Source: Escherichia phage W22
Sequence record: PV159336
Direction: 5' to 3' (one strand)
Length of the DNA: 64,000 nt
The position numbers were made by a program, and so were the translations under genes. Below are positions 28,027 to 50,313 of the stretch, in pieces; position 1 is the stretch's first letter; each line of letters begins with the position of its first letter. The notes beneath the pieces were generated by a model, which was not told where the DNA came from, did no database searches, and was given only the letters and a program-made list of their open reading frames with translations.

Positions 28027-28029
28027 CAG

Positions 28030-32188: not shown

Positions 32189-32195
32189 ATAAATA

Positions 32196-32215: not shown

Positions 32216-32222
32216 TTATCAC

Positions 32223-33383
32223 TTAGTAAGAACGACCACCAAACACATACTCTGTGTAGTTTTTACGTTCTTTGTTTTTAATAACAACTTCAATGTTGTT
32301 ACCTTTATCATCGGTGAACATAAAGTGATAACCGTCACCACCCATTGTACGAATGTGTTTTTCATCATACGTTAGCAAGATACGGTCTACACCCCAGTAG
32401 TAGTCACCTTCTTCATCTTTATCTTCTACGGTAACAATCCCTTCCATTTCAGGAAGATGCTCTTCTCCTGACTTATGATCTACAGCTACAACATAACGAT
32501 TACCGCTAAACAAACCTTGTGCTGTCATACCGTCAATATCGGTATCTGACGAAACATCTGCTGTACGATCTACACCGTTAACTTTCAGAAGTTTAACTTC
32601 TTTTGCAGCATAGCGGTGTTCAGTAATACTGATACCCATTAATGCAAGTGCATCAGAGAATTTGTCATTAGGATAACGGTTAAGTTCTTCTACTAATGAC
32701 TGAACAATATCAAAGTTCAAATCCACGGAGAGATTATAAAGCGTTTCAAAATCTGGTAAGAAGGCTTTGTTCTCCAGATTTTTAGCCAGATAATCATCCA
32801 TAGTAGCTTTAGGTAGTTTCTTATAACTAAAACTGTAGAAAATACGGCTAGGACGATTACGCAAAAATTCTGATACATAACCATCATTTTTAGTCAATAC
32901 AAACAGCTTGTCATAACCACCAACACCATCCAGCAGGGTAAGCAAACCGTCTTGTGCATCTTTTTCAGCATACAGTTTATCAAATTCATCGATCATAATC
33001 ATCACAGGTTGTGTGATTTTAGACATAAAATTGATAAAGCCTTCACCATTAAAAGCACTACCGATAGAAATAGTAGGAATACCCATTTCACGAAGAGCAG
33101 AAGACAGCATTTTAGCTTGCAAAGTTTTACCGCTACCTTTCGTACCCTCAAGGAGAACACCTGTGTTTTTACCTTTGCGGCTAAGGAACGTCTTGATAAT
33201 ACGTTCTGATTTATCATCAGTATCACCGTATGTTACTGAAGGGACTTCCATATCGTTTTTAGGATACAGGAAGAACTCGCCACTTTGAGTAACACCTACA
33301 CCAAAAGTTCCTGCTGGAATTTCTTCAATATCTGTACCAGACTTCTGACGCAGGAAGATTTGATTGCCGAATACTGTAAACAT
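32223..33383 (-). CDS. P-loop NTPase (AAA-type ATPase), paralogue 1
   Basis: AGAGGAG RBS; Walker A GTKGSGKT, Walker B IMIDEFDK; paralogous to 49186-50313. Confidence 0.6.
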   Translation of the reverse strand: MFTVFGNQIFLRQKSGTDIEEIPAGTFGVGVTQSGEFFLYPKNDMEVPSVTYGDTDDKSERIIKTFLSRKGKNTGVLLEGTKGSGKTLQAKMLSSALREMGIPTISIGSAFNGEGFINFMSKITQPVMIMIDEFDKLYAEKDAQDGLLTLLDGVGGYDKLFVLTKNDGYVSEFLRNRPSRIFYSFSYKKLPKATMDDYLAKNLENKAFLPDFETLYNLSVDLNFDIVQSLVEELNRYPNDKFSDALALMGISITEHRYAAKEVKLLKVNGVDRTADVSSDTDIDGMTAQGLFSGNRYVVAVDHKSGEEHLPEMEGIVTVEDKDEEGDYYWGVDRILLTYDEKHIRTMGGDGYHFMFTDDKGNNIEVVIKNKERKNYTEYVFGGRSY

Positions 33384-33403
33384 AGTTTTCTCCTCTATTT
33401 AAT

Positions 33404-33874
33404 TTAGTCAGATTCCCAAATGTTGTCTTTCTTAACCCACATTCGTTGATTATCTGAACCTCTATAACGTTTCGTTGTTGGTTGATTCATATCATACTTA
33501 CCATCTATCACTATGTCAACCAGTTTTTTAATTTTCTCTGGAATTTCTTCAAAAAGATATCCTGTATATAAGACAATATCTTTTTTGTTTCCAAAACAAT
33601 CTCTTACCTTCTCAAGAACATACTCTACAGTGTCAATGTTCTCTTTGTCAAGAGGTTCACCACCTAAAACTGTTAATCCTTTAATGAAAGGTCGAGATAA
33701 ATCTTCCAAGATAAGATCTAATGTTTCAGCAGTGAACTCTTGTCCGTAATTATACGACCAGGCTTTCTGGTTAAAGCAGCCACGGCAACCGTGGCTACAA
33801 CCGCTCACCCACAAAGAGCATCTTACACCGTCACCGTTGAGCATGTCAACAGGTTCATATCCGGCGTAATTCAA
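33404..33874 (-). CDS. nrdG: anaerobic ribonucleotide reductase activating protein (radical SAM)
   Basis: CSHGCRGCFN Cys cluster; ATGA overlap with nrdD stop. Confidence 0.85.
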   Translation of the reverse strand: MNYAGYEPVDMLNGDGVRCSLWVSGCSHGCRGCFNQKAWSYNYGQEFTAETLDLILEDLSRPFIKGLTVLGGEPLDKENIDTVEYVLEKVRDCFGNKKDIVLYTGYLFEEIPEKIKKLVDIVIDGKYDMNQPTTKRYRGSDNQRMWVKKDNIWESD

Positions 33875-35670
33875 AAATGTTTCTCCCTTTCTAGTACCTC
33901 TTGCATTTTACCTTTGTTATAAGGGCGAGAGTTAGGGGCAGAAAGGTATCCTGACACTCTTCTGATCACAGATATGGATTCTTCTTCATGATTACCACAA
34001 CTTGGACACTCGAAGCCTTTAGCTGTTGCCTTAAATTCACCATGAAAACCACATTTGAAACACTGATCTACAGGTTGGTTCACGCCAAAATAAGGAATTT
34101 TATTGTAGGCATAATCTACAAGAGTTTCCAGTGCTTGCAAGTTATTTTTAAGGTTTGGTGTTTCTACATAACCTATGTTCCCACCATTACTAATTTGTGC
34201 AAAACCTTCCTCATAATCCCACTTTTGGAACGGGGTAGTGTGCATCCATACAGGTTGATGGAAAGAGTTTGTCAAGTAGTCACGATCAATAGAGCCAGGA
34301 TAGCGATCATTTAACGCTTTGGCAAATTTATAGCACAAGGATTCTGCTGGTGTTCCATACAAACTAAAAGCTAAACCAGAACGTTCTTTAAATGTGCAAC
34401 AGATATCCTTCATATATTGAAGGATGTTTTTACCCATTGCTTTTGGATTGGTGTTATTTGGGTATAAAATCTCCATAGCTTCTGCTAAACCTACATAACC
34501 GATACTAATAGAGGCATAACCACCTTCAAATAGTTTACCAATCTCTTCATTAGCTTCTAGTCGAGCTAAAGCACCTTCCATAAACAATGTAGGGTTTTGA
34601 GATGCTTTGGTATGTCTAATACGGTTAACACGTAGCATATGTGCCTTATACGCCATCTCCATATGTTGTTCCAACAGTTCAGTAAATAAGATGCCCTTTT
34701 CACGGGACTCTGCTGCAATGATAGGTAAGTTTAAAGAAACTACGCCTAAGTTGAAACGACCATCATATTTTTCACCTTGCTCTGTTGCATAGTATGACAA
34801 GAAACTACGGCAACCCATGCTTGTGACGCGACCATCTGAAGATCCTGTAACTTCTTTGTTTAAAGGTACAGAGATAAAATCAGGATAAATGCGTTCAGCA
34901 CAACACTCCATTGCCAGTTGCTTCAAATCATAGTTTGGATCGCCAGCTTTCATGTTAACACCATCTTCCAAGAAGAAGATAACTTTAGGAAACACAGGAG
35001 TTACCCTATCTTTTCCTAATCCTTGTTTGTGCACCATTAGGTAGTTTTTAGTGATCATTCTACCAAAAGCAGAGGTATCCAAACCTAAACTAATTGTTAT
35101 AAAAGGTGACTGACCATTTACACTCATTAGAGTGTTCACCTGGTAGATTAAAGTTTGCATTGCATCATAGACCTGTTTATCTACCATACGCATAGCAATA
35201 TCATAATCGCCAACATCGGCATATATTTTATTAAAACTTGCTTTAACGTATTGACTAAGCCCAGTATCAACATGTGCACAAGTTTGTCCACCATATTGGC
35301 TAGAGGCTACTGCTTGAATAATTTGAGTTAGGACAGTAGTCGCTACACCGATAGATTTTGGTTTTTCAATATGTGCATTACCAATACGGAAACCGTTCTC
35401 AAGCATATCTTGGTAATTTACCAGGCAACAATTAGTTAAAGGTGAGAGTAAATAATCTAAATCGTGAATGTGACCATACCCACTTTTATGCCATTCTGCT
35501 AAATCTTCAGGTAAAATATGGGTCATTGCCATGTGCTTGCTTAGGATACCTGCTAGTAAATCTCGGTGAGTATTAACAATCATTGCAGGTTTGTTTGCAT
35601 TTTCACGAGTAAATTCTTCGGATGTTTGTTCGAGGAATCCGATTACATCCTCATATAGTTTTTGGGTCAT
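33871..35670 (-). CDS. nrdD: anaerobic ribonucleoside-triphosphate reductase
   Basis: 599 aa; C-terminal zinc ribbon CFKCGF...CPSCG and glycyl-radical-type RRVSGYLS; CGGAGG RBS. Confidence 0.9.
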   Translation of the reverse strand: MTQKLYEDVIGFLEQTSEEFTRENANKPAMIVNTHRDLLAGILSKHMAMTHILPEDLAEWHKSGYGHIHDLDYLLSPLTNCCLVNYQDMLENGFRIGNAHIEKPKSIGVATTVLTQIIQAVASSQYGGQTCAHVDTGLSQYVKASFNKIYADVGDYDIAMRMVDKQVYDAMQTLIYQVNTLMSVNGQSPFITISLGLDTSAFGRMITKNYLMVHKQGLGKDRVTPVFPKVIFFLEDGVNMKAGDPNYDLKQLAMECCAERIYPDFISVPLNKEVTGSSDGRVTSMGCRSFLSYYATEQGEKYDGRFNLGVVSLNLPIIAAESREKGILFTELLEQHMEMAYKAHMLRVNRIRHTKASQNPTLFMEGALARLEANEEIGKLFEGGYASISIGYVGLAEAMEILYPNNTNPKAMGKNILQYMKDICCTFKERSGLAFSLYGTPAESLCYKFAKALNDRYPGSIDRDYLTNSFHQPVWMHTTPFQKWDYEEGFAQISNGGNIGYVETPNLKNNLQALETLVDYAYNKIPYFGVNQPVDQCFKCGFHGEFKATAKGFECPSCGNHEEESISVIRRVSGYLSAPNSRPYNKGKMQEVLEREKHF

Positions 35671-35681
35671 TAATCCTCCGT

Positions 35682-35712
35682 GGAAAATAAAAGCCAGCTT
35701 AATGCTGGCTTT
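35682..35712 (-). terminator. rho-independent terminator upstream of nrdD
   Basis: AAAGCCAGC-TTAAT-GCTGGCTTT hairpin with U-rich tract on - strand. Confidence 0.55.
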
Positions 35713-35759
35713 AGGGTGGATCTTTATTTTAAATCTTTTTCGTAAGATTGTCCTTGATC

Positions 35760-36710
35760 TTAGTCAAGGTTTTTGGTAATACGTGTACAACCGTCAGAAG
35801 TCAAACCGTCAACTTGAGTTTCCCAAGTGCCATGAATATTTCGGAACAATGTTGTTACACCTTTTGGTTCATTAATAATGATTGCCATAACAAGTTTAGG
35901 ATCGATAACAGACATAATCTTTTCCTCAATACCCTCTGTAATAACATTATTGCGCACAATATTAATTGCATCTTCTTGTACAGTAAGAGCACTTACGTTC
36001 TTAAGAGTATATACCTGCTGTGTAGTGTAAATGATACGAACATAACTTACAGAACGAGTAGGCACAGGTTTACGCGGTCGGCGAAAACGTGATTTTGGTG
36101 AAGATTCAGTCTTACTTTCATGTTTTGAATAATACTCCTCAAACAGTTTAGTAAATGTTTTTACATCAACTACAAACCGATCTTTCCGGTATGGAGAATT
36201 CTTATGTGCACCATTAATACCACTGTTTTCATCGAAGAAAGTAATGTTTTCTTCAGTTGAATACATTAGATAATGATCTGCATTTTTCCAATGTGGTTGT
36301 GGACAACGAGAATTACAAACGGAAAGCAGATAATTAATATTTTCTTCCGTGGCCTCAGTATCCAGGAAACACGTATTATGCACAGTCAGTTGTACTTTTT
36401 CAGCCATATCTTTTTCTTTATCCTCTTTAGCAAGATATTCAGTACGAATAATCTCCAGAAAACCTTCAGGTGTTACTTCCATAAATGTATATTCAGGATG
36501 AAGTTCCATATATTCAAATCCACAACCATCTAATTGCTGTAGAAAGTTAGGGTAGAAGAACAAATCATTAACACTGTGAATCAGATCATTGATTTCTGCT
36601 TCAGTTGTGTAACCAAAACTCTTGTGAATTGCTTCGTTAAGAACATGCAGGATACCCATCTCTTCTGCTGCTTTTTTAACTTCCAGTTTATTAGCGTAAA
36701 ATGCAATCAT
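35760..36710 (-). CDS. hypothetical protein
   Basis: 316 aa ORF. Confidence 0.45.
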   Translation of the reverse strand: MIAFYANKLEVKKAAEEMGILHVLNEAIHKSFGYTTEAEINDLIHSVNDLFFYPNFLQQLDGCGFEYMELHPEYTFMEVTPEGFLEIIRTEYLAKEDKEKDMAEKVQLTVHNTCFLDTEATEENINYLLSVCNSRCPQPHWKNADHYLMYSTEENITFFDENSGINGAHKNSPYRKDRFVVDVKTFTKLFEEYYSKHESKTESSPKSRFRRPRKPVPTRSVSYVRIIYTTQQVYTLKNVSALTVQEDAINIVRNNVITEGIEEKIMSVIDPKLVMAIIINEPKGVTTLFRNIHGTWETQVDGLTSDGCTRITKNLD

Positions 36711-36727
36711 TATGTTTTCCTTCTAAA

Positions 36728-37162
36728 TTAGTTTAAAATTTCTTTTGCAATGGTAGAAGCAAGTTTTCCATCGTATTGATTCGGATACTCTGCTTTAAGG
36801 TGTTTCATCATATCTGGCATTTTCTTGCCTGTCAAGGCAAATTCTTCAGCAATAGCTCGAAGATCATCTTCAGATAGCATTTCTGGCAAATATTTTTCCA
36901 GAGTGGTGATATCACGCATAGCTCGCTCACATTTGCTAATGGAGGCATTAACTTTCTTAAGCGAGTCTAGTTCCTCTTTAGCGTGTGCAATACCAATCTT
37001 AACAATGTTAATCATAATATCGTCTTCTGATTTGTTTAGATTTGCCTTTTGAGTACGAGCAAGGTCAAACTCACCAATAATATTAGTTAACAAAGCAAAA
37101 GCACCCTTATCGGTTGTACGTGCTAAGATACGATCTGCTTTCATTTGTGTCACAATAGACAT
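36728..37162 (-). CDS. GatB/YqeY-domain protein
   Basis: LEKYLPEMLSEDDLRAIAEEFA...GKKMPDMMKHLKAEYPNQYDGKLASTIAKEILN resembles YqeY pattern. Confidence 0.45.
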   Translation of the reverse strand: MSIVTQMKADRILARTTDKGAFALLTNIIGEFDLARTQKANLNKSEDDIMINIVKIGIAHAKEELDSLKKVNASISKCERAMRDITTLEKYLPEMLSEDDLRAIAEEFALTGKKMPDMMKHLKAEYPNQYDGKLASTIAKEILN

Positions 37163-37174
37163 TCTATTCTCCTC

Positions 37175-37747
37175 TTATTTGCTAATGCTTTGAATGTTAT
37201 TTACAACACGGTTTATTGCCAGTGAAGCCCTAGGCTCCGCAATACCTGTTGCATAGATATAAGGATGACCTTTTGGAGACTCCCTCATACCGAATGAACC
37301 TAATTCTAAACCATATTCATCCTCTACGTCAACCCCAATATTAGTGGGTACTAAATATGTTTTAACTCCATAATAAGTAGAGAAGAAACAGCGCATAGCG
37401 TTAGCATACTCTTCAATTGTAGCATCAGGGTAGAACTCAATCAACTCCAATTTCAAGAAAATATTAAAATGGGTATCATCTAAATTTTCTTCTGTACGGT
37501 AACATGGCGTTAGTGCCATATACGGATTACCTGCTGCAAATTCAAAACCATCCTTCTCCATTTGCAGGAAAGATTGTTCTGCACTAGCTACATAGTATTT
37601 ACCGTTAGGATGCCCTAATGGGCGATCCTCTTTATTTTCTGGTAGTGTGTACGCCAGTATATCAGCATCCACGAGATATGGAACTTCCAACATTTGTGCA
37701 AACCGACCATAGTAATCAATAGCTTGAGCTATTACTGCAACATTCAT
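37175..37747 (-). CDS. hypothetical protein
   Basis: 190 aa ORF; no confident motif. Confidence 0.45.
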   Translation of the reverse strand: MNVAVIAQAIDYYGRFAQMLEVPYLVDADILAYTLPENKEDRPLGHPNGKYYVASAEQSFLQMEKDGFEFAAGNPYMALTPCYRTEENLDDTHFNIFLKLELIEFYPDATIEEYANAMRCFFSTYYGVKTYLVPTNIGVDVEDEYGLELGSFGMRESPKGHPYIYATGIAEPRASLAINRVVNNIQSISK

Positions 37748-37995
37748 GATCGACCTCCATTGCGGAATGCACGTTTAGTAATGTTTGACATAGTGATCAA
37801 ATCTTGAAGCGTCATATCAGGAAAATGCTGTTCAAGAACACCTTCAACAGCGCCTACAATATCTGATAACTCAATAAGTTGCATCAGCTTGCAATCTTGA
37901 TCAATAGCATCTTGAAGTTCATAAAGCTCTTCTTGAATCTTAGCAACAGAACCATATTCCTCTTTGCTAATCTCCTTCAAATGATACCCTGCCAC
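37744..37995 (-). CDS. MazG-like nucleotide pyrophosphohydrolase (small)
   Basis: GTG start with AGGGGG RBS; KIQEELYELQDAI...LIELSDIVGAV resembles MazG EExxE/D core; weak. Confidence 0.35.
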   Translation of the reverse strand: MAGYHLKEISKEEYGSVAKIQEELYELQDAIDQDCKLMQLIELSDIVGAVEGVLEQHFPDMTLQDLITMSNITKRAFRNGGRS

Positions 37996-38005
37996 TTTAA
38001 CCCCC

Positions 38006-40780
38006 TTAGTTTACCAGTTTATTTATGTCTGGTAAAAGATTTATTTCACCTAAGAAATCACCTTCACCTTCCTCTAGCCAACTCTCATATGCTTGTGCAT
38101 GATTATAGTTACCATCAAAAGAATCTGCAACAAATTTTTCTACAGTTTTTCGAGATGTGCCAGCGCCAAATACACCAAGTTTAATACCATTGATCGGTAA
38201 AGTAGGGCTTGTTGGTACTTTCTCTGTTGCAACACGGTTGATATCTATAATCTCCTGTACGGTTGTATTCCATTGTAAGCATTTAACACAACGGGTGTGC
38301 GCTACATACAGTAGGTTTCGCTCTGCCTCTTCTAGTCCTACCCATTCACCAGTCTTTTTATCATAGTTGGAAGGAAAATCATTAGCAACAATAACCTGAT
38401 CCCACTCCAAACCTTTAGACTTATGTGCTGTAGTCAGTGTGACTTTTGCTGTAGGAGAATTTCTATGCGTTCTAAGTGTATGTGCTATAGTGTTTGCCTT
38501 ACCAGAAACTACAATGTTTAACAAGCGTTTAGCATCTGGATCAGCCTCTGCACACTCAACAAATTCATTCCAGTCTGCGTAAGGTAATACAGTTTCATGT
38601 TTTACTTTCTCAATATCTCCTCTCCGAAGAGCATTAACACTATCTACCATAGAGATAAAATCCCTGGTATCTACGTTAATAATAATTTCTTCCCCATCTG
38701 CAATACGATCCATTGCCTCCATAAGCAAGGTTAAATTCTTGCGAAAGATGATAGTGTAAGGTTTTGTATAGTCTACAACATCTGATTTGTAGCTACCTAC
38801 TACAGTATCAAAGCCTTTACCAACCAAAGGATGACGCAAAGGTTCTTTATCACTTAAAATCATATTCGCAATGTTTGCCACTTTGGGGCCAAAACGGAAG
38901 CAAGCAGTTAATGGAAGCTCTGCCCCATACTTAGCTGTTTCAATCATCATATTAGAGCTACCTCTAAATTGATAAATGCAGTTATGGCTAAGAATTTCAT
39001 TGCCAAAGAAGTTAGCAGTATCCTCTACTTCAATATCATAATAGATACCATCACTATCTACAATGTCCACAATTTCTTCTGCCGTTACAGTATCACCATC
39101 TTTTACTAACACAGACATGCCTTTAAACAAACCCGCTGCCGGAATTAAATTATATTTGGCAGTGTTCACAGAGGACATGCATTCTTTTAAAGATGCAAAC
39201 GGAACTATTTCAAGGATCTTTTGTGCAAAACTCAATGCTTCACGATAAGAATTGAAATATTTACGTACACGGTAACGACCTTCCAATTTAGCAACACTTA
39301 CGCTTACACCTGCTTCAATGAGTGAGGCATAGATTGGCATTTCACTTTCTGTCCACTCAAAGCTAACTTGTGTTCCTTTACAACCTTGTGCTCGCAAAGT
39401 CACTGTTAACATTTTTCTTGCATCTACTGTACAATTGATGCTGTGCCAATGTGGATAAGCAAAATGATAATCTTTATCCTCTAAAAGTTTAAAACCATTT
39501 TGTCCGAATTGTTCAAAGATATTGTTGATCCTTTCTTGATTAATACCGCGTGAACTTGCCTCAAATACACAAGTAGGAATGCCATATTGTAAACTGTATG
39601 CCATTTCTTTTTCCATAGCAGCTTCACGGTTTTCAACAATATCCAACACCCACAACTTCTGTGCTTTTTCAGAACGTGTACGTTGCCCCAGTTTAGAAAA
39701 ACCTTCTTTATCATCGAATTTGTTAGTGATCCCTACTCGGAAACCTAAATCTTTTCTCCACATTAGGTATACCACCATCTGATCATCTTTCAGAACATAA
39801 GGTGAAGCCCAAATACGATGGTTATGTGTCATATCTAAAGTCTTACCTTTAGCAGTAATAATATTCCTACCTTTTGTACGTGTAGATAAAGTTTTATTTG
39901 TTACTTTTCTAAATGTAACTTTACCGTTAGAATAAGACTCTACCTTATCACCGATTTGCAGGTCTTTCATTGTAACCTGACCATTTTCGGTATTAAGTAC
40001 CGTGTTTTCTGACACACATTGGAATTCATCACCAACTACCACAATTTGTTTGGCAGATTTAGCATTCCGCAGAATAGACAAGAATGCAGGGTTAACATCC
40101 TGGAATTCATCCCCAAAAATAATGTCATAACCAAGATCAGCACCAGACAATTCAAACAATTTTACATAGGTGTCATGCGTCATCAAAGTATCTGTGTTAG
40201 GGTCAATGCGCTCTCGCCACAATTGTTTTGCATACTTAACTACTTCTGTAATTAGTTTGTGTTCGTTAATACCTTTTCTTTTAATATCTGCAAGATGTAC
40301 ACTAGGAAAATGTTTACGGCTGATAAAAGGATCATCCGAAAATTCAAACTTACCTACGGTTTGCTTGATCATTAAACCAATCATAGCACGAGTTAAAAGT
40401 GTTTTCCCTCGTTTATCAATAAGATTATTAATCTTAAATTTCTTTGCTATCTCACTACCTGTACCTGCAACGTTAACATACTGTCCTTCTGGTCGTGACA
40501 GTTTTGCACGTAAACGATGATCCAGGAATTGATAGCAAATGGAATGCAATGTACGGCATTCTACATTTGGTGGCATCTTACGCCGTGCTTCTTCTGCCAT
40601 GCTTTTATTGAAAGCTAAGTAAAGAATGCGATCTTCTGTACTGTTAGCCAGCAAATAAAGTGTTGACGTTTTTCCTGATCCAGATTTAGCTTGGATAGTT
40701 AAAAACCGATGATCTGGAAAAGCCTCCTTAATAGCTGTTTGCTCTTCTGTTGGAGTAAAACTCAACTCTTTCTTAGCCAT
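38006..40780 (-). CDS. SF1 DNA helicase (UvrD/Dda-like) interrupted by an intein
   Basis: Start taken at MAKKEL; Walker A AKSGSGKT, motif II GDEFQD, motif III split as VVGDEFQ / CIYQFRGS by a 346-aa insert. Confidence 0.8.
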   Translation of the reverse strand: MAKKELSFTPTEEQTAIKEAFPDHRFLTIQAKSGSGKTSTLYLLANSTEDRILYLAFNKSMAEEARRKMPPNVECRTLHSICYQFLDHRLRAKLSRPEGQYVNVAGTGSEIAKKFKINNLIDKRGKTLLTRAMIGLMIKQTVGKFEFSDDPFISRKHFPSVHLADIKRKGINEHKLITEVVKYAKQLWRERIDPNTDTLMTHDTYVKLFELSGADLGYDIIFGDEFQDVNPAFLSILRNAKSAKQIVVVGDEFQCVSENTVLNTENGQVTMKDLQIGDKVESYSNGKVTFRKVTNKTLSTRTKGRNIITAKGKTLDMTHNHRIWASPYVLKDDQMVVYLMWRKDLGFRVGITNKFDDKEGFSKLGQRTRSEKAQKLWVLDIVENREAAMEKEMAYSLQYGIPTCVFEASSRGINQERINNIFEQFGQNGFKLLEDKDYHFAYPHWHSINCTVDARKMLTVTLRAQGCKGTQVSFEWTESEMPIYASLIEAGVSVSVAKLEGRYRVRKYFNSYREALSFAQKILEIVPFASLKECMSSVNTAKYNLIPAAGLFKGMSVLVKDGDTVTAEEIVDIVDSDGIYYDIEVEDTANFFGNEILSHNCIYQFRGSSNMMIETAKYGAELPLTACFRFGPKVANIANMILSDKEPLRHPLVGKGFDTVVGSYKSDVVDYTKPYTIIFRKNLTLLMEAMDRIADGEEIIINVDTRDFISMVDSVNALRRGDIEKVKHETVLPYADWNEFVECAEADPDAKRLLNIVVSGKANTIAHTLRTHRNSPTAKVTLTTAHKSKGLEWDQVIVANDFPSNYDKKTGEWVGLEEAERNLLYVAHTRCVKCLQWNTTVQEIIDINRVATEKVPTSPTLPINGIKLGVFGAGTSRKTVEKFVADSFDGNYNHAQAYESWLEEGEGDFLGEINLLPDINKLVN
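38981..40018 (-). other. intein (346 aa) within helicase motif III
   Basis: Starts CVSENTVLNT (block A), TxxH at MTHNH (block B), ends YDIEVEDTANFFGNEILSHN followed by +1 Cys; flanks rejoin as GDEFQ-CIYQFRGS. Confidence 0.7.
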
Positions 40781-40781
40781 T

Positions 40782-41258: not shown

Positions 41259-41266
41259 ATTTCCCC

Positions 41267-41782: not shown

Positions 41783-41804
41783 TATATTTTTCCTTATTGG
41801 TTTA

Positions 41805-42534: not shown

Positions 42535-42535
42535 A

Positions 42536-42886
42536 TTAACCCAAACACATCTGTGCAATCAAGCCCTGTATAAATTTATTAGCTTCTTTACTGTCGTAAT
42601 CAGTTTCTTCTGGATATCCATCTTCATCGTACACAACTGTACCTTCAATATACCCTGCCTCAATTAAGGCACGGATCATATCAAATTGCCAGCATGAGTT
42701 ACCAAATGGACGTTTACCATTAAAACACTCTTCTTCTCTCCATAACGTAGAGAGTAGTTGTCGGAAATATTCCCGTACAGTGACAGTACCAAGATCTGAA
42801 TCCTCAAACATAACATCCAGGGCATCAGGATTGCTTTTCTCTACATAAGGAATATATTTAACACCATTAATAGTTACATCAAGCAT
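42536..42886 (-). CDS. hypothetical protein
   Basis: 116 aa ORF. Confidence 0.45.
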   Translation of the reverse strand: MLDVTINGVKYIPYVEKSNPDALDVMFEDSDLGTVTVREYFRQLLSTLWREEECFNGKRPFGNSCWQFDMIRALIEAGYIEGTVVYDEDGYPEETDYDSKEANKFIQGLIAQMCLG

Positions 42887-43249
42887 TTATTTCTCCTTAT
42901 CATCATATTCTAGGAACATATCTGCACGATATGCTTTACGCTCTTCAAACTTAGCAGGATCTACAACAATAAGCAATACAAGGTTAACATCTAAATACTT
43001 CTTAACAAATAGAAATAAATCTTTTCCACAGTTAAAACCTACACCAGTATAGGCATCCCCATATTGATCTACTGATTTAATCTTCTTACTAACCGTACAT
43101 TCTATGCTATTCTTTTCTTCTTGGTATAAGGCTTTCCCACCCCAATATGTAAAGAATTTAGTACCGTCAGCACCAAGTTTAAAACCTTCTGTTGCATGCA
43201 CAGCAAATGAAAGTAAACATAACCAAGTGATCATCAGGTACTTTAGCAT
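42887..43249 (-). CDS. secreted hypothetical protein
   Basis: Start refined to ATG 43249; signal peptide MLKYLMITWLCLLSFAVHA. Confidence 0.45.
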   Translation of the reverse strand: MLKYLMITWLCLLSFAVHATEGFKLGADGTKFFTYWGGKALYQEEKNSIECTVSKKIKSVDQYGDAYTGVGFNCGKDLFLFVKKYLDVNLVLLIVVDPAKFEERKAYRADMFLEYDDKEK

Positions 43250-43250
43250 T

Positions 43251-43733
43251 TTAACCACCCAATTGCAAATGTTTAGAAAGAACAATATCCCACTGATCAC
43301 CACAACCGTTATCTATGCGGAACATAATGTACGTATCATCTTCTTCTACAACATATAACACCTCATAGGAATTACAACAGCCTTCCCAATTTTTAACAGC
43401 CTCTGGTGTATCATGTGTAAAAATTTCATTACCATCATATGACCAAAACAAAGGGGTGAGGTTTTCGAACGTCAGTGAAGTAGGGTTCACTTCATCTTTA
43501 ACTGCTTCCTCATACTCCTTATGCGTTTGTACTGCTTTAGTTAGTGTACTCATGTCTATCTCCTTTTCTCCTTCTTGACTATGGAGGATAGCGAACTCTC
43601 TAAACTCCACTTCACGCCATGTTTTTAGGTAGTGCTTTATAATTTTATCAACATCTGCCTGTTCGACATTACTTTTCAAGCAATAGTAATCATGGTCTTC
43701 GCCCATTCTACCCCATATGCTGTACATTGTCAT
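43251..43733 (-). CDS. hypothetical protein
   Basis: 160 aa ORF. Confidence 0.45.
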   Translation of the reverse strand: MTMYSIWGRMGEDHDYYCLKSNVEQADVDKIIKHYLKTWREVEFREFAILHSQEGEKEIDMSTLTKAVQTHKEYEEAVKDEVNPTSLTFENLTPLFWSYDGNEIFTHDTPEAVKNWEGCCNSYEVLYVVEEDDTYIMFRIDNGCGDQWDIVLSKHLQLGG

Positions 43734-44001
43734 CTGATTGATCCTTTACATTGCTCTTGGTATACACAGGAATAACATCGTGTTGATCTTTATTACTTTC
43801 ATCTGTTAAAGCCCAAAACAACTTACCTGCTGGATGTTTAAAGATGTAGGCAATAGGTTCCTCTTCCTGTGCTTCTTTGCTACGGATACCATCCCGCCAG
43901 GCAAGCCAAGTGTAGATCATCACTTCTTGACGTTCTTCTTCGTTAGGCCACATATGTGGTGGGAAGGTTTTATCAAACCATTGCTTAAATTCTTCAGTCA
44001 T
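43708..44001 (-). CDS. hypothetical protein
   Basis: 97 aa ORF with AAGGAG RBS. Confidence 0.45.
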   Translation of the reverse strand: MTEEFKQWFDKTFPPHMWPNEEERQEVMIYTWLAWRDGIRSKEAQEEEPIAYIFKHPAGKLFWALTDESNKDQHDVIPVYTKSNVKDQSDDNVQHMG

Positions 44002-44011
44002 AATCTACTCC

Positions 44012-44176
44012 TTAGCGTACAAAGTTAACTTCTGCTTCTTTCAGCTTCGACACTTCTACATAACCACCATGATCATCTTTAATCCATTCTTTTCCTTTAC
44101 GGATGATAACAGGATATATAGAGTGAGTAAGTTTAGGCACAGATCTTTTTGTTTTAGTGATAGAAATGTTTTGCAT
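44012..44176 (-). CDS. small basic protein (54 aa), absent from ORF track
   Basis: ATG 44176 with AAGGAG RBS 6 nt upstream; ends TAA at 44012-14 just before next gene RBS. Confidence 0.4.
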   Translation of the reverse strand: MQNISITKTKRSVPKLTHSIYPVIIRKGKEWIKDDHGGYVEVSKLKEAEVNFVR

Positions 44177-44236
44177 AGTAGTCTCCTTAGTAAATTTTAC
44201 ATAGAGTCTAGATTATTTAGTAGATAGAGTCAATAA

Positions 44237-44503
44237 CTAATTACTGTTAGATCTGTACTCTGTCTTCCATTCACAATGGTAAACTTCAACAGGTTCTAAC
44301 TTCCAGTGTTCAGGAACTAATTCAGGGCAATATCTACAAAAGAGAAATAGATAGATAATTAAGACAGGTATTAAATAGTAAAATGGTATACGATCATAAC
44401 CATACTTACGAGATAACATGTAGACATAGAGATAGGGTATAACAATTAATCCTATAACTATAAGTAAGAAGAGAAGTATAAACCTTAGTGTAGTAACATC
44501 CAT
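44237..44503 (-). CDS. small membrane protein
   Basis: 88 aa with two hydrophobic helices. Confidence 0.4.
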   Translation of the reverse strand: MDVTTLRFILLFLLIVIGLIVIPYLYVYMLSRKYGYDRIPFYYLIPVLIIYLFLFCRYCPELVPEHWKLEPVEVYHCEWKTEYRSNSN

Positions 44504-44667
44504 AGTATTCTCCTATACAGTAATATACTCTGTTCCTGCCCCTCCATGAGTGACAGGAACAATATCTATAGAGAATACTAACTCGCTTCGCTCGTCACCT
44601 TTCAGGTTTAGGGTAGCATGTTTTTCTGAAAAAGTCAATACTCTCCACAAAACTTTACAAAATACTT

Positions 44668-44940
44668 TTACATAGGTACAACAGAGTCTGTTTTGAAGTC
44701 GTACATATGATTTACACCTGTGATTTTTGACATAGAGATTGCACGTTTAACACCTGCAATTACCTGGTCTGTCTTCTTAATCTCTTCACGGAACTTACGT
44801 ACAGTTAGAGAGAAGAAACGATGATCCATCCATTGACGATTCACACGATCACGTTTGAAGTGACGGAAATCTTCAATCTGTCTATTACGCAATCGGCGCA
44901 GTACATACAGTAATTCATAGTAAGGGTGTTTATTTTTCAT
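44668..44940 (-). CDS. hypothetical basic protein
   Basis: 90 aa ORF. Confidence 0.4.
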   Translation of the reverse strand: MKNKHPYYELLYVLRRLRNRQIEDFRHFKRDRVNRQWMDHRFFSLTVRKFREEIKKTDQVIAGVKRAISMSKITGVNHMYDFKTDSVVPM

Positions 44941-44943
44941 AAT

Positions 44944-45372
44944 TTATTCTCCAAATCGAAAATCGTCAATATCATCAAACCATACACAATGGCGAGTCCT
45001 TTCTTTTTCTGTTGCAGACATTGTTTCAACAGCTTTAGGACTAAGCACAACAGGAATGTAACGAATAGGTCGTTCATAATAGTAGCCATACTTTTCTGTA
45101 TTAGCTGCCTCAAAGACTTTACGGCGTTCTTCAAGATCTTCTATGGTGAATCCTACCATATAGCCATCATATTTGCTACCCCATCCTTCCTCGCTTTCAA
45201 CAACCGGGATATAAAAGCCGTTACGCGTCCCTGACGCTGGTTTTTCTTGAGCCTGAAGGCAAGCCTCCCATCCTGCTTTAAAGACGTTATAGAGCGATTT
45301 ACGCACGTTATGAGTGCCGCTTTCGCTTGCTGGATAGAGTTCATTAAATTTATCTTGGATTTGTTGTGTCAT
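44944..45372 (-). CDS. hypothetical protein
   Basis: 142 aa ORF. Confidence 0.45.
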   Translation of the reverse strand: MTQQIQDKFNELYPASESGTHNVRKSLYNVFKAGWEACLQAQEKPASGTRNGFYIPVVESEEGWGSKYDGYMVGFTIEDLEERRKVFEAANTEKYGYYYERPIRYIPVVLSPKAVETMSATEKERTRHCVWFDDIDDFRFGE

Positions 45373-45515
45373 ACTCGCCCCTTAGTGATTATTTGACCAG
45401 CTAAACAAATAGCTTGTAGTACAATAAAGAAGTAGCCTAATTTTACACTACCCAATACCCAGAATGCAATGTTTGCAAACAAACAAAAAGCAATATTAAG
45501 TCTAAAGAATAACAT
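45369..45515 (-). CDS. small hydrophobic membrane peptide (48 aa), absent from ORF track
   Basis: TAAATG coupling to upstream stop and ATGA overlap with downstream start; GAAGGGG RBS. Confidence 0.4.
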   Translation of the reverse strand: MLFFRLNIAFCLFANIAFWVLGSVKLGYFFIVLQAICLAGQIITKGRV

Positions 45516-45716
45516 TTAATCCCCTTCATATTTAGGTAAAGGCATATATGCCACAATAGGAGGGTAATCAAAGTGAAAATGATGGTTCACCACAATAATC
45601 TTACCAGACATACTTTTATGCACTTCACAATACCCTTTTTCACCATCTTCCATTACCACCACATACTCACCTAGTGGGATATCGTATGGATCTTCTACTT
45701 TTACCCATTCTGTCAT
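45516..45716 (-). CDS. hypothetical protein
   Basis: 66 aa ORF. Confidence 0.4.
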   Translation of the reverse strand: MTEWVKVEDPYDIPLGEYVVVMEDGEKGYCEVHKSMSGKIIVVNHHFHFDYPPIVAYMPLPKYEGD

Positions 45717-45748
45717 TTTGGAAATACCTCTTGTCCATCTTCATGCAT

Positions 45749-45982
45749 TTATAGTAAAGTTTCACAGATTTCATACACATCTTGGTATGTTACAACTGAG
45801 AGATCAGATTCTTGATCTTCGACAAGCATAGCACAAAGAGCTTTAATGTCAATACCTTTACAATGTTCCGTAGCTACACGGTACATTTCACCATCCTCCC
45901 AAACAATTGGTTGCGGGAGCAAAACATCTGTACCATCTTCACAAGTTACAATGTAGTCTGCAATATTATCACGAATTTTCAT
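45749..45982 (-). CDS. hypothetical protein
   Basis: 77 aa ORF. Confidence 0.4.
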   Translation of the reverse strand: MKIRDNIADYIVTCEDGTDVLLPQPIVWEDGEMYRVATEHCKGIDIKALCAMLVEDQESDLSVVTYQDVYEICETLL

Positions 45983-46236
45983 TGTACTACCCCCTTAAAT
46001 CCAGATGTACTGCCAGTTTTAACTTTTGCTTTAAGATGTTCCAACTCTACCATAGGTGTTGCTACTTGTATAGGATTTTCCTCAACCTCATAAATATAAT
46101 ATTCATAATAAGCATACTTACCAATAGAGTGCAGATACTTAATTGCATGTTCAGGCGAATCTGCTTCAACATACCCTAAATCTTTTGTGGTACGACCTTC
46201 GCAATCACCTTCGGTAGTTACATGATAAAGTGTCAT
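45979..46236 (-). CDS. hypothetical protein
   Basis: 85 aa ORF; last gene of - strand block before divergent region. Confidence 0.4.
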   Translation of the reverse strand: MTLYHVTTEGDCEGRTTKDLGYVEADSPEHAIKYLHSIGKYAYYEYYIYEVEENPIQVATPMVELEHLKAKVKTGSTSGFKGVVQ

Positions 46237-46366
46237 AAAACCTCCTCATAGTAAGGTAAAGCCTTGATCAGTTGTTCTGAAGTGCCATTTTGCACCCACG
46301 TAACACCATTGTCAACAGAAACATACCCTTTTTTTGTCAATAAATTTACGCAGACAACCAGTGAAC

Positions 46367-46546
46367 TTATTTTTGTAGATCATTTCTTCTTTCCTTTTTG
46401 ATTACAGCCCCGTCACTTCCTTGCCAAACTTCCGCTCTGAATTCCATCTCAAACCACTCACCACCGCAAAAACGGTTATGTTCAACACGTCTATCTTCCT
46501 TCATTGCTTCTTTAGCTTCGATAGAAGTTAGTTCGATGTTTTGCAT
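46367..46546 (-). CDS. possible small protein (59 aa) in divergent intergenic region
   Basis: ATG 46546 with AAGGAG RBS; longer track ORF 46367-46720 lacks RBS at its start. Confidence 0.3.
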   Translation of the reverse strand: MQNIELTSIEAKEAMKEDRRVEHNRFCGGEWFEMEFRAEVWQGSDGAVIKKERRNDLQK

Positions 46547-46664
46547 TTGTTTTTCTCCTTTCATTTGGTATGCGCTAATCTTAACAAAATAAAAATGTAT
46601 GTCAATACTTGATTTGAAATTAGTTTCTGGTACTCTGTGTGTATCGTAACAAAAGAGGTTAGAT

Positions 46665-46955
46665 ATGAACATCACACTAGCAACTAAGAATATTACAGAA
46701 ACTTTTGATGGTTTTGGCATTATTATTGCTGTTCATGGGCATAACGAAAAATGGTTAGCCTCTTTTGAAGAGGACAAAGAACGCAATGTACGTTTGAATG
46801 CACCAATCAAAGTTTTACACCAGGTAGGTGAGAATAAGAAACAATGGAGATCATATAAAGAGTGGAACATTACAAACGAGTTAATACACAAACTTGACAA
46901 AGTGATAAACATGTTCGACAATGCACCAAGCAGTGCAAAACGTGTCTTAATGTGA
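46665..46955 (+). CDS. hypothetical early protein
   Basis: 96 aa ORF with AGAGG RBS; first + strand early gene. Confidence 0.45.
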   Translation: MNITLATKNITETFDGFGIIIAVHGHNEKWLASFEEDKERNVRLNAPIKVLHQVGENKKQWRSYKEWNITNELIHKLDKVINMFDNAPSSAKRVLM

Positions 46956-46967
46956 GAGGAGAACCAA

Positions 46968-47255
46968 ATGTATTATTCACAAAATGAAGTAGCAAACATT
47001 AAACTGGCAGTGGGCGATCTTATTGTGTCACCTAACTACTATTGGGATAACACAGATTTGGTTGAAGTAGTAACCTATGTTGGAGTTGAAGGTATTGTGC
47101 TCTACACACTAGGTGGAGGTGTTGTTGGGGAAATGGAACGTTATACGACAACGAAGAAACTGGTAAGCTCTTATCGCATGTTTTTACACCAAGGTTCGGA
47201 AGAGTATACAGCTTTCTTGTTGAAATTAGATGCAGATCGGGAGAAGGCACGATGA
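46968..47255 (+). CDS. hypothetical early protein
   Basis: 95 aa ORF with GAGGAG RBS. Confidence 0.45.
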   Translation: MYYSQNEVANIKLAVGDLIVSPNYYWDNTDLVEVVTYVGVEGIVLYTLGGGVVGEMERYTTTKKLVSSYRMFLHQGSEEYTAFLLKLDADREKAR

Positions 47256-47605
47256 AAATTGTACACGATGAAATTCAATTTGAAGAGAGTGATCTTCTTG
47301 ATCTGGATGTGACACTAAGTAAACTGATCTACAACGCACTTTCTGCATATCGTGCAAAAGTGATAGCCACAAACAATGTTAAAATTCCTAGCGTGTTACT
47401 TCGTCGGATGTACCCACACGCTAAAGGTGACTATCTACCTTATATGGAAGAACGAGCAGCAGAACACTGGTTAGAAATTCTTGAAAAAATGGAGTCCTCT
47501 TTTAAAGATTCAACTCCACCGGAAGAAGTTAATGAAAAACAACGGCAAGAGCGTTTAGAAGGTCGTATTTTGTTTGCTAAGTATTTCCATAATTTGTGGA
47601 GCTAA
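47252..47605 (+). CDS. hypothetical early protein
   Basis: 117 aa ORF, ATGA overlap with upstream stop. Confidence 0.45.
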   Translation: MKIVHDEIQFEESDLLDLDVTLSKLIYNALSAYRAKVIATNNVKIPSVLLRRMYPHAKGDYLPYMEERAAEHWLEILEKMESSFKDSTPPEEVNEKQRQERLEGRILFAKYFHNLWS

Positions 47606-47685
47606 ACATATCTGGTAAAATCACTTATATGTTCTTAGTATACTTGTGTAAAGAAGTTATCGGTCTAATTAATTAAGGGGAAGAT

Positions 47686-47937
47686 ATGATTCAGTTTCAA
47701 AAAGGTCAAAAGATGACAGTTCACGATGCAGAGGAAATGGAGTTTGCACTTAAACTTCTCGAAAATGCTGGGTTTGTGTGGATCAACGGTGGAGAGAAGC
47801 CTACAGCTTGGCTTCCGCATGAGAAAATAGCCAACCACACCTTCCCTGATAGTATCAATTGGCATTCTGATGGTAAGATTTGCCGTGGAAGTTACCCAAC
47901 AGGTGTTGAGTGGACTATTAAATTAGGAGGGCTTTAA
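47686..47937 (+). CDS. hypothetical early protein
   Basis: 83 aa ORF with GGGGAAG RBS. Confidence 0.45.
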   Translation: MIQFQKGQKMTVHDAEEMEFALKLLENAGFVWINGGEKPTAWLPHEKIANHTFPDSINWHSDGKICRGSYPTGVEWTIKLGGL

Positions 47938-47938
47938 T

Positions 47939-48277
47939 ATGTTTAGTAAAGAAATGAGAGAAGTAATCGCCACTTTGGTAGTTGATCATGGTGTTGAAGT
48001 TGAGCGTCACGTTTGGAACGATGAACCTCCTTTCTTCGATTTGGCATCACGAGCTAAAAGTCATATGCACCTGCTGGAAGACGGTAATGAGTTTGTTCTC
48101 CGTATGCGTTATGATCGAGAGTTTCGAATTCCGCTTGACACTGAACCAGATGGTGTAGTAATGTGGTTGGCAGAACATTTCGCATACGATGCACTACATG
48201 GAAGAAGTTTTGGTAATGAGCGTTGGGATGCCATTTGTCGTAAGCATAATATTGAACCAGAGTACGGAGTTTTATAA
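47939..48277 (+). CDS. hypothetical early protein
   Basis: 112 aa ORF. Confidence 0.45.
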   Translation: MFSKEMREVIATLVVDHGVEVERHVWNDEPPFFDLASRAKSHMHLLEDGNEFVLRMRYDREFRIPLDTEPDGVVMWLAEHFAYDALHGRSFGNERWDAICRKHNIEPEYGVL

Positions 48278-48528
48278 TGTTAAGTATCAAACCTAAAATG
48301 ATAACAGCAGATGAAGCAGACTTTATTTTCAAATGTGGACGTGTATGGAGAGAATTCACAAAAGGGAATGAAGTGGTGGTTGTTGTCGAACACAAGATAT
48401 CTATCCAGGATCTGTTTGGACAATATGTTGATGTTATTAAATTAGGTATTGACAAGGGTTTAGTTGAGGTGTTAACATTAGATCAAGTTGAAGCAGAGCA
48501 CCTCGATAAAGTGGTGGTTGAATTTTAA
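48277..48528 (+). CDS. hypothetical early protein
   Basis: 83 aa ORF, overlapping start/stop. Confidence 0.45.
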   Translation: MLSIKPKMITADEADFIFKCGRVWREFTKGNEVVVVVEHKISIQDLFGQYVDVIKLGIDKGLVEVLTLDQVEAEHLDKVVVEF

Positions 48529-48548
48529 AATACAGACGGGAGAAAGGT

Positions 48549-48722
48549 ATGAGTTTCTTTGTTACAGTATTTATGGCTATCTGGATTGTAGTCTCACTCG
48601 TTCTTTTCCTGGTGGGTTGTCTGGAAGAGATTAAGAAAGCGGTTATTTGCGGTTTCTTTGGCTTTATTATCTCTCCTGCCTGGATGTGGTTCTTCATTAT
48701 GATTGGTTTCCTTAAAAGGTAA
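48549..48722 (+). CDS. small membrane protein (57 aa), absent from ORF track
   Basis: ATG 48549 with GGGAGAAAGG RBS; two hydrophobic segments. Confidence 0.4.
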   Translation: MSFFVTVFMAIWIVVSLVLFLVGCLEEIKKAVICGFFGFIISPAWMWFFIMIGFLKR

Positions 48723-48736
48723 GTGAGGAATAAAGA

Positions 48737-49174
48737 ATGAGTAAAACAAACGCAATCGCAGATAAAGCAACGGATGTACTTCTGAACATGGTTAACGTCA
48801 CTATTCAAACAATGAGTGATGTTGTAGAGTTTGGAAAACAACAAATTCCAGAAGTAATCCATCAATTATTAGTGTGGAAAGCAGTATCCGCAGGTTTATG
48901 GCAACTTTTTAGTATTTGCTTTATGTTTATTACTTTTATTGCTGTGCGGAACCTCGTAAAAGCAATTAAAGATAAAGAATGCCTGTGGTCACGAGATCGC
49001 TATGGTGAAGTATCTGCTTTACCTATTGTTGGTCTTGTTGTCTGTGCTTTCTTTTTCTTTTTAGGATTTGTTATTTTCTTTTCGAATTTTGATTGGCTAA
49101 AAATCATTATTGCACCAAAAGTGTATCTGATTGAATTTGCTGCTGATTTAATTCGTTCATCTCAACAAAAATAA
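48737..49174 (+). CDS. membrane protein
   Basis: 145 aa; GAGGAA RBS; multiple hydrophobic helices. Confidence 0.45.
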   Translation: MSKTNAIADKATDVLLNMVNVTIQTMSDVVEFGKQQIPEVIHQLLVWKAVSAGLWQLFSICFMFITFIAVRNLVKAIKDKECLWSRDRYGEVSALPIVGLVVCAFFFFLGFVIFFSNFDWLKIIIAPKVYLIEFAADLIRSSQQK

Positions 49175-49185
49175 AAGGGGTTAAA

Positions 49186-50313
49186 ATGAAATACACGATT
49201 TATGGTGATATTGTAAGTGTAAATAAAGATATGGGTGTGGAATCTAATTATCTTCCACCTGGATTCTATACTGTTAGTCGTGATCCCCTTGGCAATTATT
49301 TTTTAAGCCGTGGTAATCTAACAGGTGTACCGGATGTTCTGTATGGTGAAACAGAAAAACGAGCAAATCACGTTATCCGTACATTCCATCGCCGGAGTGC
49401 ACAAGGTAAAAATACAGGTTTGCTTCTGACAGGAACTAAGGGCAGTGGTAAAACTATGTTAGCCAAGCTCATTAGTCGTGACCTTGTAGAAGAAGGTATT
49501 CCAACTATTATGGTTACTCAAGCCTACAGTGATGCTAATTTCATTGAACTTATTAGCAAGATCACCGACAAAGCAGTGATTATTTTTGACGAGTTTGATA
49601 AAGTATATGAGAAGAAACAAGATCAAGAAGCACTTCTCACTTTGTTAGATGGTACTGGCAGTGGTAATAAACTGTTTATTCTAACTAAAAACAGTGGCTT
49701 TATCTCTGAATTCTTTCTAAATCGTCCTAGTCGTGTGTTTTATAATTTTAATTATGATAAAATCTCACTAGAAACTATGATTGACTATTTAGATAAAAAC
49801 CTGGATAACAAAGCACACTTTGATAATTTCCAAAGACTTTGGGATGTAAGTTTAGAGTTGTCCTTTGATGTGATCCAAGGTATAGTAGAAGAACTTAATT
49901 TCTACCCTGATTTATCCTTTAAAGAATGCATCTCTATGATGGGCGTTTCTTTGGGTGGTGGTAATAAATGGGATATCAGCAGTGTTGTTATTAATGGAAA
50001 ACTTCAGAAAGTTAGCTGGGTATCTAGTTGGCATAACTTCACACCTGCAATCTTTTTAGGTGGTTCGTGCACACTAGACGTGTACTTGTCATCTCCAAGT
50101 GATGCAGATTCTAAAGAAGCCCTTGCTAATAGCTCTTACGTGGTTTTTGATGATGAAGGCGATGCTCGAATTCCATTGAATGCGACAAAAATGAAAGCAG
50201 ATCTTATTACAGGCGGTAAAATCGTTGTGTTTAGTGATGATCCAGAAGATTCTTTCCGTATTGTTCTGGAACCAACTATCACCAATGGTGCAACTTTGGC
50301 AAGTGTGTTTTAA
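49186..50313 (+). CDS. P-loop NTPase (AAA-type ATPase), paralogue 2
   Basis: Walker A GTKGSGKT, Walker B IIFDEFDK; co-linear similarity to 32223-33383 (LLTLLDG, LFILTKN, NRPSRVFYNF). Confidence 0.6.
   Translation: MKYTIYGDIVSVNKDMGVESNYLPPGFYTVSRDPLGNYFLSRGNLTGVPDVLYGETEKRANHVIRTFHRRSAQGKNTGLLLTGTKGSGKTMLAKLISRDLVEEGIPTIMVTQAYSDANFIELISKITDKAVIIFDEFDKVYEKKQDQEALLTLLDGTGSGNKLFILTKNSGFISEFFLNRPSRVFYNFNYDKISLETMIDYLDKNLDNKAHFDNFQRLWDVSLELSFDVIQGIVEELNFYPDLSFKECISMMGVSLGGGNKWDISSVVINGKLQKVSWVSSWHNFTPAIFLGGSCTLDVYLSSPSDADSKEALANSSYVVFDDEGDARIPLNATKMKADLITGGKIVVFSDDPEDSFRIVLEPTITNGATLASVF

Follow-up and report, generated by a model that had tools for sequence, protein, structure and literature searches.

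The closest described relatives of the two genes considered here are phage ATPases of the family PHROG 2376, which includes phi92 gp190 and gp221, phAPEC8 gp014, Salmonella phage 7-11 gp125, Pectobacterium phage CBB gp602 and Deep Blue 066. Both genes, called A and B in the following, lie in a 64,000-nucleotide stretch of Escherichia phage W22 (PV159336), the whole of which was analysed and is referred to as the window. Members of the family have the same motifs and the same predicted three-domain architecture as A and B; among the records listed, most phages carry one copy, and Justusliebigvirus and the related Klebsiella Stephanstirmvirinae carry two. The phi92 genes are both annotated as 'predicted AAA domain fold; putative ATPase or Zn metalloprotease', and other records label the orthologues of A and B 'ATPase', 'FtsH-like protease' or 'hypothetical protein'. 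Literature searches on the family, on Justusliebigvirus ATPases and on the transcriptome and structure of phi92 returned nothing on these genes or on their paralogy.

Outside the phage family, classical AAA proteins (Bcs1, the FtsH AAA domain, Rpt/PAN/Mpa, p97/Cdc48 D2, NSF D2 and B. subtilis YjoB) are 13-20% identical to A and B. The alignments with them span ~210-250 residues, and the N- and C-terminal beta domains of A and B have no counterpart there; compared with these proteins, A and B also have a shorter pore-loop-1 segment and lack a peptidase domain, a membrane anchor and a second AAA ring. The bacterial Trip13/Pch2-like ATPase of cyclic oligonucleotide-based antiphage signaling system (CBASS) operons (PDB 6p8v) is also among the close known systems. 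Hda, DnaC, IstB and the clamp loaders have the generic AAA+ core in common with A and B and give weak, sub-threshold hidden Markov model (HMM) matches, but the scores lie 6-10-fold under the cut-offs, and A and B carry classical-clade motifs without DNA- or helicase-binding domains. Seen against these systems, the A/B pair is an ordinary lineage-specific duplication of an already annotated, uncharacterised phage AAA family.

Conserved motor and diverged end domains

The two open reading frames (ORFs) have exactly the boundaries and strands reported in an earlier note on this DNA, which had described them as paralogues with co-linear similarity over their whole length. The genes and their domains, the latter delimited in part on AlphaFold2 (AF2) models, are as follows:

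32223-33383, minus strand: gene A, AAA ATPase of 386 residues, orthologue of phi92 gp190; lineage-specific extra copy
33249-33383, minus strand: N-terminal five-strand beta domain of A, residues 1-45, from AF2 secondary structure; 24% identical to B
32625-33218, minus strand: AAA module of A, residues 56-253, from invariant columns and a Foldseek comparison with the PDB
32226-32624, minus strand: C-terminal beta-rich domain of A, residues 254-386, fast-evolving; from AF2 and from hhalign homology to the B clade and to a third clade, C, described below
49186-50313, plus strand: gene B, AAA ATPase of 375 residues, orthologue of phi92 gp221 and phAPEC8 gp014; ancestral syntenic copy
49351-49953, plus strand: AAA module of B, residues 56-256
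49954-50310, plus strand: C-terminal beta-rich domain of B, residues 257-375, with a conserved tip L-A-S-V-F-COOH; from AF2, hhalign and tail analysis

BLASTP aligned residues 2-253 of A with residues 3-256 of B at 119 identities in 254 positions (47%, E=1e-81), so that similarity is clearly not confined to the P-loop motifs and the paralogy is confirmed. Nothing matched across the final ~120 residues in this comparison. Identity differs strongly between domains: the AAA alpha/beta part has 58% and the lid 46%, the N-terminal beta domain 24% and the last ~120 residues ~20%. When the C-terminal domains of the A and B clades were compared as profiles by hhalign, they aligned with a probability of 69% (E=4e-5, 17% identity), and the intermediate C clade linked them more firmly (A-C 95.7%, E=9e-9; B-C 92%, E=6e-7). 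Co-linearity over the whole length thus holds by BLASTP for residues ~2-256 and at the profile level only for the C-terminal ~120 residues. Because the C-terminal domains are homologous and co-linear by profiles, the entire protein was duplicated, and the ends have since diverged far more than the motor. A profile search of 1.84 billion representatives with the C-terminal domain alone gave no informative domain context; the matches were the A, B and C clades, their fragments and a few multi-stretch matches in proteins of 1200-3800 residues that we suspect to be compositional.

Both proteins match the 363-position PHROG 2376 'ATPase' profile over its length (A, E=2.2e-104, residues 1-376; B, E=6.6e-108, residues 1-367), placing them in a phage-only family whose members have a single AAA module between two beta domains, one at each end of the protein. 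They also exceed the gathering cut-off of 21.2 bits for the Pfam AAA family PF00004, A with 29.4 and B with 38.9 bits. A scan of A and B against NCBIfam gave no match above the curated cut-offs, and none of the PADLOC defence models was significant (best mad8, E~1e-3, 16-17 bits). Structure prediction, which the earlier note had proposed as a check, gave the two proteins one shared domain plan: an N-terminal beta domain, the AAA alpha/beta part, a four-helix lid, a beta-rich C-terminal domain (~residues 255-370) and a low-confidence tail. The models are confident, with a predicted local distance difference test score (pLDDT) of 85 for A (99-sequence alignment) and 90.4 for B (126-sequence alignment). 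The same three-domain architecture is predicted in unrelated phages (Erwinia jumbo phages, Salmonella SE131, Agrobacterium Atu_ph07, Proteus P59 and Lactobacillus phages), with template modelling scores of 0.6-0.8 over 380-436 columns.

All catalytic and inter-subunit motifs (Walker A Lys, Walker B Asp-Glu, sensor-1 Asn and the NRPSR arginines) are kept in A and B. In B numbering, and across alignments of 99 and 126 homologues, the G, K, D and E of Walker A (G83xxG86xG88-K89-T) and Walker B (D135-E136) are invariant, as are, among the 126 homologues, the Q, L, D and G of Q147...L151-T-L-L-D155-G156. The segment Q147-x3-L-T-L-L-D-G is the counterpart of the classical-AAA inter-subunit motif NQLLxEMDG[FM], with T/V at its third residue rather than F/M. 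Sensor-1 N169 is invariant, and so are both arginines of N179-R180-P-[GS]-R183, which aligns with RPGR of p97. The AAA module of A correspondingly holds Walker A GTKGSGKT, a pore-loop-like A-F-N-G, Walker B IDEF, LLTLLDG, sensor-1 N166, arginine fingers R177/R180 and the four-helix lid. Of the motifs listed earlier as common to both proteins, GTKGSGKT, LLTLLDG, LF(V/I)LTKN and NRPSR(I/V)FY are present; the exception is Walker B, where B has IIFDEFDK and not I(M/I)IDEFDK. At the pore-loop-1 position, 84% of homologues have an aromatic residue (F/Y/W) and 65% have Gly two residues on, A having F-N-G in a loop ~4-6 residues shorter than in FtsH or p97. A by-eye reading that there was no pore loop was dropped, as the family alignment has a conserved aromatic residue and Gly there. 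The nearest solved structures found by Foldseek in the PDB are Bcs1, Rpt subunits, FtsH, NSF, bacterial Trip13, AFG2, Rix7 and YjoB.

The motifs above all, together with the predicted fold, support placing A and B in the classical clade of AAA ATPases, the class of protein-remodelling ATPases. The statement that no function could be assigned from sequence therefore stands for the substrate and gives way for the biochemical class. In our preferred reading, to which we assign a probability of roughly 0.55, A and B are active AAA ATPases of the classical type that form rings and act on proteins by remodelling or unfolding them, with a shared motor and with diverged targeting domains for different targets. 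Each would assemble into a ring in which the arginine fingers of the neighbouring subunit complete the ATPase sites, and each ring would spend ATP on a protein target, which it would remodel, unfold or take apart. Since a conserved motor is shared and the end domains are very different, the two copies probably act on different targets, to which, or to different partners, the diverged N- and C-terminal domains would direct them.

Several points weigh against this reading. What is said here of oligomeric state, ATPase activity and substrate is inferred, and the literature searches gave no experimental or transcriptomic information on any family member. Pore-loop-1 of B is Y-S-D, with no glycine, in a segment shorter than that of FtsH or p97. 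The tree discussed below is a neighbour-joining tree only, with nearly equal support for A+C (52) and B+C (48) and none for A+B (0), and no gene neighbour is conserved across the phages examined, so that the neighbourhood offers no partner candidate.

The main rival explanation, which we consider unlikely, is that A and B are replication-type AAA+ proteins (DnaC/IstB-like loaders, Hda-like or clamp-loader-like) acting on DNA or the replisome, in which case A might serve phage replication and B disturb that of the host. Weak HMM matches to Hda (E=4e-7), the IstB helper and ORC/Cdc6, matches at E=1e-8 to 1e-6 to PHROG families of clamp loaders and DnaC-like proteins, and database names such as 'DNA replication protein DnaC', 'putative DNA replication protein' and 'regulatory inactivator' point that way, as does the position of A in a block of replication and nucleotide-metabolism genes. 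The scores, however, are far under the curated NCBIfam cut-offs (Hda 29.8 versus 194.8 bits, IstB helper 19.9 versus 200, PRK08116 27.5 versus 189), and the NRPxR second region of homology and LLxxLDG are classical-AAA signatures. The segment from beta2 to Walker B is short, leaving no space for an initiator-specific insertion, the lid has no conserved sensor-2 arginine in the family alignment, the nearest structural neighbours are classical AAA proteins, and in other phages the family gene lies outside replication modules.

Several GenBank records would instead make the two proteins ATP-dependent proteases, namely FtsH-like Zn metalloproteases, and the AAA domain is indeed FtsH-like. Nevertheless, a motif scan found neither HExxH nor HxxEH in A or B, and Pfam gave no match to Peptidase_M41 or any other peptidase; the C-terminal domain is ~120 residues long and beta-rich in the AF2 models, and in place of an N-terminal membrane anchor the first 45 residues form five beta strands with pLDDT ~90. 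An intrinsic FtsH-like protease, to which we give next to no weight, is thereby refuted, and the labels 'FtsH-like protease' and 'Zn metalloprotease' are unsupported.

Distribution, origin and maintenance of the pair

The window is DNA of a Justusliebigvirus: A and B match ~55 genomes of this genus (phi92-like E. coli myoviruses of the Stephanstirmvirinae) at 95-100% nucleotide identity, both copies are intact in all Justusliebigvirus genomes, and the A protein is 98-100% identical across the genus. By tblastn, many large virulent phages encode a member of the family and hardly any encode more than one; they include jumbo phages, phages of Aeromonas and Acinetobacter, Salmonella phage 7-11, Bastille-like Bacillus phages, Lactococcus 949-like phages, phages of Lactobacillus and Enterococcus, Staphylococcus 6ec-like phages and crAss-like phages. 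Two copies per genome were confined, among the records listed, to Justusliebigvirus and to related, unclassified Klebsiella phages of the Stephanstirmvirinae (KP13-26, phi1_175008), besides Lactobacillus phage LpeD, which has two tblastn match places.

B is present in all Stephanstirmvirinae examined. Phapecoctavirus (phAPEC8 and its relatives) and the listed phiWec179 record have a B orthologue only, which shares 64-67% identity with B and 43% with A. This gene has the same position in phAPEC8 as B has in the window, a few genes after the divergent intergenic region from which a plus-strand block starts, and the B orthologue is also syntenic in Klebsiella phage phi1_175008. At the other locus, the small ORF found after A in the window comes immediately after nrdG in phAPEC8, so that A with its hairpin amounts to a 1.2-kb single-gene indel. 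The A protein of the Klebsiella phages is 71% identical to that of the window, and in KP13-26 the gene precedes the same small ORF. B is thus the ancestral syntenic copy, and A is a later single-gene addition kept in one sub-lineage.

In a neighbour-joining tree built on the conserved N-terminal two-thirds (252 columns), every one of the clades A, B and C had 100% bootstrap support, and A+B+C were monophyletic with respect to the other homologues (92/100), which indicates that the paralogues arose inside this phage lineage. The third clade comes from a 154-kb metagenomic contig (Logan SRR10882646), where a gene at 10001-11107 in a B-like position encodes 368 residues; its motor is ~54% identical to those of A and of B, and in the profile comparisons its C-terminal domain forms a link between those of A and B. 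As A is an indel absent from the sister genus and is never sister to B in the tree, the pair is not necessarily a simple in-genome tandem duplication. Two scenarios can be drawn: either the duplication is old and Phapecoctavirus later lost A, or A was acquired from a related phage.

Both copies are maintained under purifying selection, as judged from their substitutions, and the C-terminal domain evolves fast with no sign of decay. None of the 23 substitutions between B and its phi92 orthologue is non-synonymous. For A against phi92, the ratio of non-synonymous to synonymous substitution rates (dN/dS) is 0.015 in the first 253 codons, which make up the motor, and 0.155 in the C-terminal domain. 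Against the Klebsiella and phAPEC8 orthologues, this domain has a dN 2.3-6 times as high as the remainder of the protein; for A the values are 0.47 and 0.08. Protein identity between orthologues is 81-87% in the N-terminal part versus 48-57% in the C-terminal part.

These values also bear on the notion of A as a redundant copy in decay, with no separate function. Its absence from the sister genus Phapecoctavirus, which implies that A is dispensable for this type of phage, would fit such a view. On the other hand, A is intact in 54 of the 56 matching records at 95-100% nucleotide identity, has been kept in the more distant Klebsiella phages and retains all of its catalytic residues under the low dN/dS given above, and we regard decay as very improbable. 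The earlier suggestion that the two genes became sub-functionalised with different partners agrees with the pattern of divergence, in which the motor is conserved and the N- and C-terminal domains are not, and with the retention of both genes in ~55 genomes under purifying selection. Sub- or neo-functionalisation is therefore a reasonable interpretation of the sequences.

Genomic surroundings

The placement of A and B in separate gene blocks on opposite strands was confirmed, and this layout is compatible with the 'different modules' proposed for them. Nothing in the sequence bears out the labels 'middle' and 'early' that the earlier note gave to the two regions, and the early and the later-acting ATPase suggested there are hypothetical. 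The genes are 16 kb apart, in separate units bounded by terminator-like hairpins. The block around A is long, on the minus strand and made up of genes for replication and nucleotide metabolism, with A at the end of the latter, 20 nt past nrdG, and B lies in a plus-strand block of small ORFs that starts near 46.7 kb beside a divergent intergenic region. The neighbouring features are:

33871-35670, minus strand: nrdD, anaerobic ribonucleotide reductase, upstream of A
33404-33874, minus strand: nrdG, anaerobic ribonucleotide reductase, directly upstream of A
32195-32216, minus strand: terminator-like hairpin after A, AAAGGAGGC-GAAA-GCCTCCTTT, a pattern match; 9 bp, GC-rich, 7 nt past the stop codon
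50329-50350, plus strand: terminator-like hairpin after B, AAAACCCGC-TTCG-GCGGGTTTT, a pattern match; 16 nt past the stop codon, with a short T run
35690-35712, minus strand: strong terminator-like hairpin upstream of nrdD, 9 bp with 5 GC, then a T run; 20 nt before the nrdD start codon

With regard to the last hairpin, either nrdD-nrdG-A needs read-through, or the hairpin is the 5' end of that transcript.

The same layout has to be set against the idea that A and B co-assemble in one hetero-oligomeric ring, like Pex1/Pex6 or the Rpt subunits. The 58% identity of the AAA core and the identical arginine-finger and inter-subunit motifs of A and B would allow it. Yet the two genes are in distant, separately bounded units, and Phapecoctavirus, the listed phiWec179 record and most other phages have a single copy, which means that B-type proteins must work alone; a mixed ring appears quite improbable.

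A functional tie between A and the anaerobic ribonucleotide reductase, as an operon nrdD-nrdG-A might imply, was rejected, since A of KP13-26 has no nrdDG upstream and phAPEC8 has nrdDG without A. Sigma-70-like matches are present upstream of both A and B. Around A, promoter-like matches numbered 69, as compared with 65.6±7.5 in shuffled controls, which is no excess. A sigma-70-like promoter (11/12) in the 3' end of nrdG, 108 nt upstream of A, was considered as a source of independent expression and rejected; the match is largely dictated by coding, because the same -35 hexamer and most of the -10 hexamer occur in phAPEC8, which lacks A. Further along the plus-strand block that holds B, a cluster of perfect or near-perfect sigma-70 consensus matches at 55039-55834 precedes small ORFs (12/12 at 55039 and 55476; 11/12 with an extended -10 at 55807), and such a sequence pattern would be typical of an early region dependent on host RNA polymerase.

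In other phages, the family gene is found among small hypothetical genes (Salmonella phage 7-11, Bacillus phage Deep Blue, Pectobacterium phage CBB), in phage 7-11 near an Srd-like anti-sigma decoy. Because family members lie among small early-type or accessory genes in unrelated phages, our leading guess for B would be a role in host takeover or counter-defence. Its position two genes upstream of a NADAR-domain gene was counted in favour of the protein-remodelling reading. That gene (51366-51917, plus strand; Pfam E=3.5e-36) is annotated as a 'YbiA-like N-glycosidase' in the genome of phage EmilieFrey. DNA ADP-ribosylation of the DarT type can be undone by NADAR enzymes, and by analogy this gene may serve counter-defence. 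Between it and B, at 50388-51365 on the plus strand, is a gene whose 325-residue product has two zinc-ribbon repeats of the CapR-homology type and matches T5orf172 weakly; its phAPEC8 orthologue, gp013 'endonuclease', is 58% identical, with 394 residues and one extra repeat. This CapR/T5orf172 gene is the only neighbour common to the B and phAPEC8 loci.

Downstream of A, at ~25184-31833 on the minus strand, is a run of genes for a HAD hydrolase, a ComF-like phosphoribosyltransferase (PF15610), a phosphatase, a TerC-like membrane protein and a 'tellurite resistance' protein, which we take to resemble the Ter-associated nucleoside-metabolite gene sets of bacteria and to be unusual phage cargo. 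The phi92 record also has a 'hypothetical tRNA' on the opposite strand within gp190 (phi92 117581-117668, corresponding to the region 32540-32630 of the window). It is probably spurious, as ARAGORN found no tRNA across the 64-kb window.

C-terminal tips and wider meaning

The proteins of this family end in a conserved hydrophobic or aromatic tip on a tail with low pLDDT, disordered in the AF2 models (tail of A, 32226-32260; tail of B, 50290-50310). The last residue is aromatic in 52 of the 96 other family sequences, versus a background of 12.6%. Most other members have the tip Ar-N-Ar-x-D-A-F-COOH, the C clade has F-R-[AV]-W, and the B clade has [LF]-[SA]-x-[VLI]-F-COOH, with Phe in 83%. In the A clade, the equivalent N-Y-x-D-Y-A-F (NYTEYVF in A) is internal and is followed by a new tail of 2-6 residues, which ends in Tyr in 82%; in A this addition is GGRSY.

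Free C-terminal aromatic tips dock partners in the HbYX motif of proteasomal ATPases, in HslU on HslV, in SSB, in T7 gp2.5 and in clamp-binding peptides. By analogy with these known tips, that of the phage family is suggested to be a partner-docking peptide, and the new Tyr-ended tail of A, which buries the ancestral tip, might give A a different partner. A more specific proposal, by the same analogy, is that the tip would plug the phage AAA rings into a host machine such as an HslV/ClpP-type peptidase or the beta sliding clamp; this we hold to be improbable. The bacterial clamp-binding consensus is QL[SD]LF, which the B-clade tip loosely resembles, and this likeness counts towards the replication-type explanation, under which the tip might be a clamp-binding peptide.

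If the tip does dock in this way, the phage would bring its own unfoldase and redirect host proteolysis or replisome traffic, and the paralogues would deliver different targets via their diverged N- and C-terminal domains. On the practical side, the protease labels that have spread through dozens of GenBank records lack support. The PHROG 2376 family is widespread in large virulent phages and has no characterised member, and the natural pair, in which the motor is conserved and the targeting domains have diverged, is a convenient genetic entry to it.

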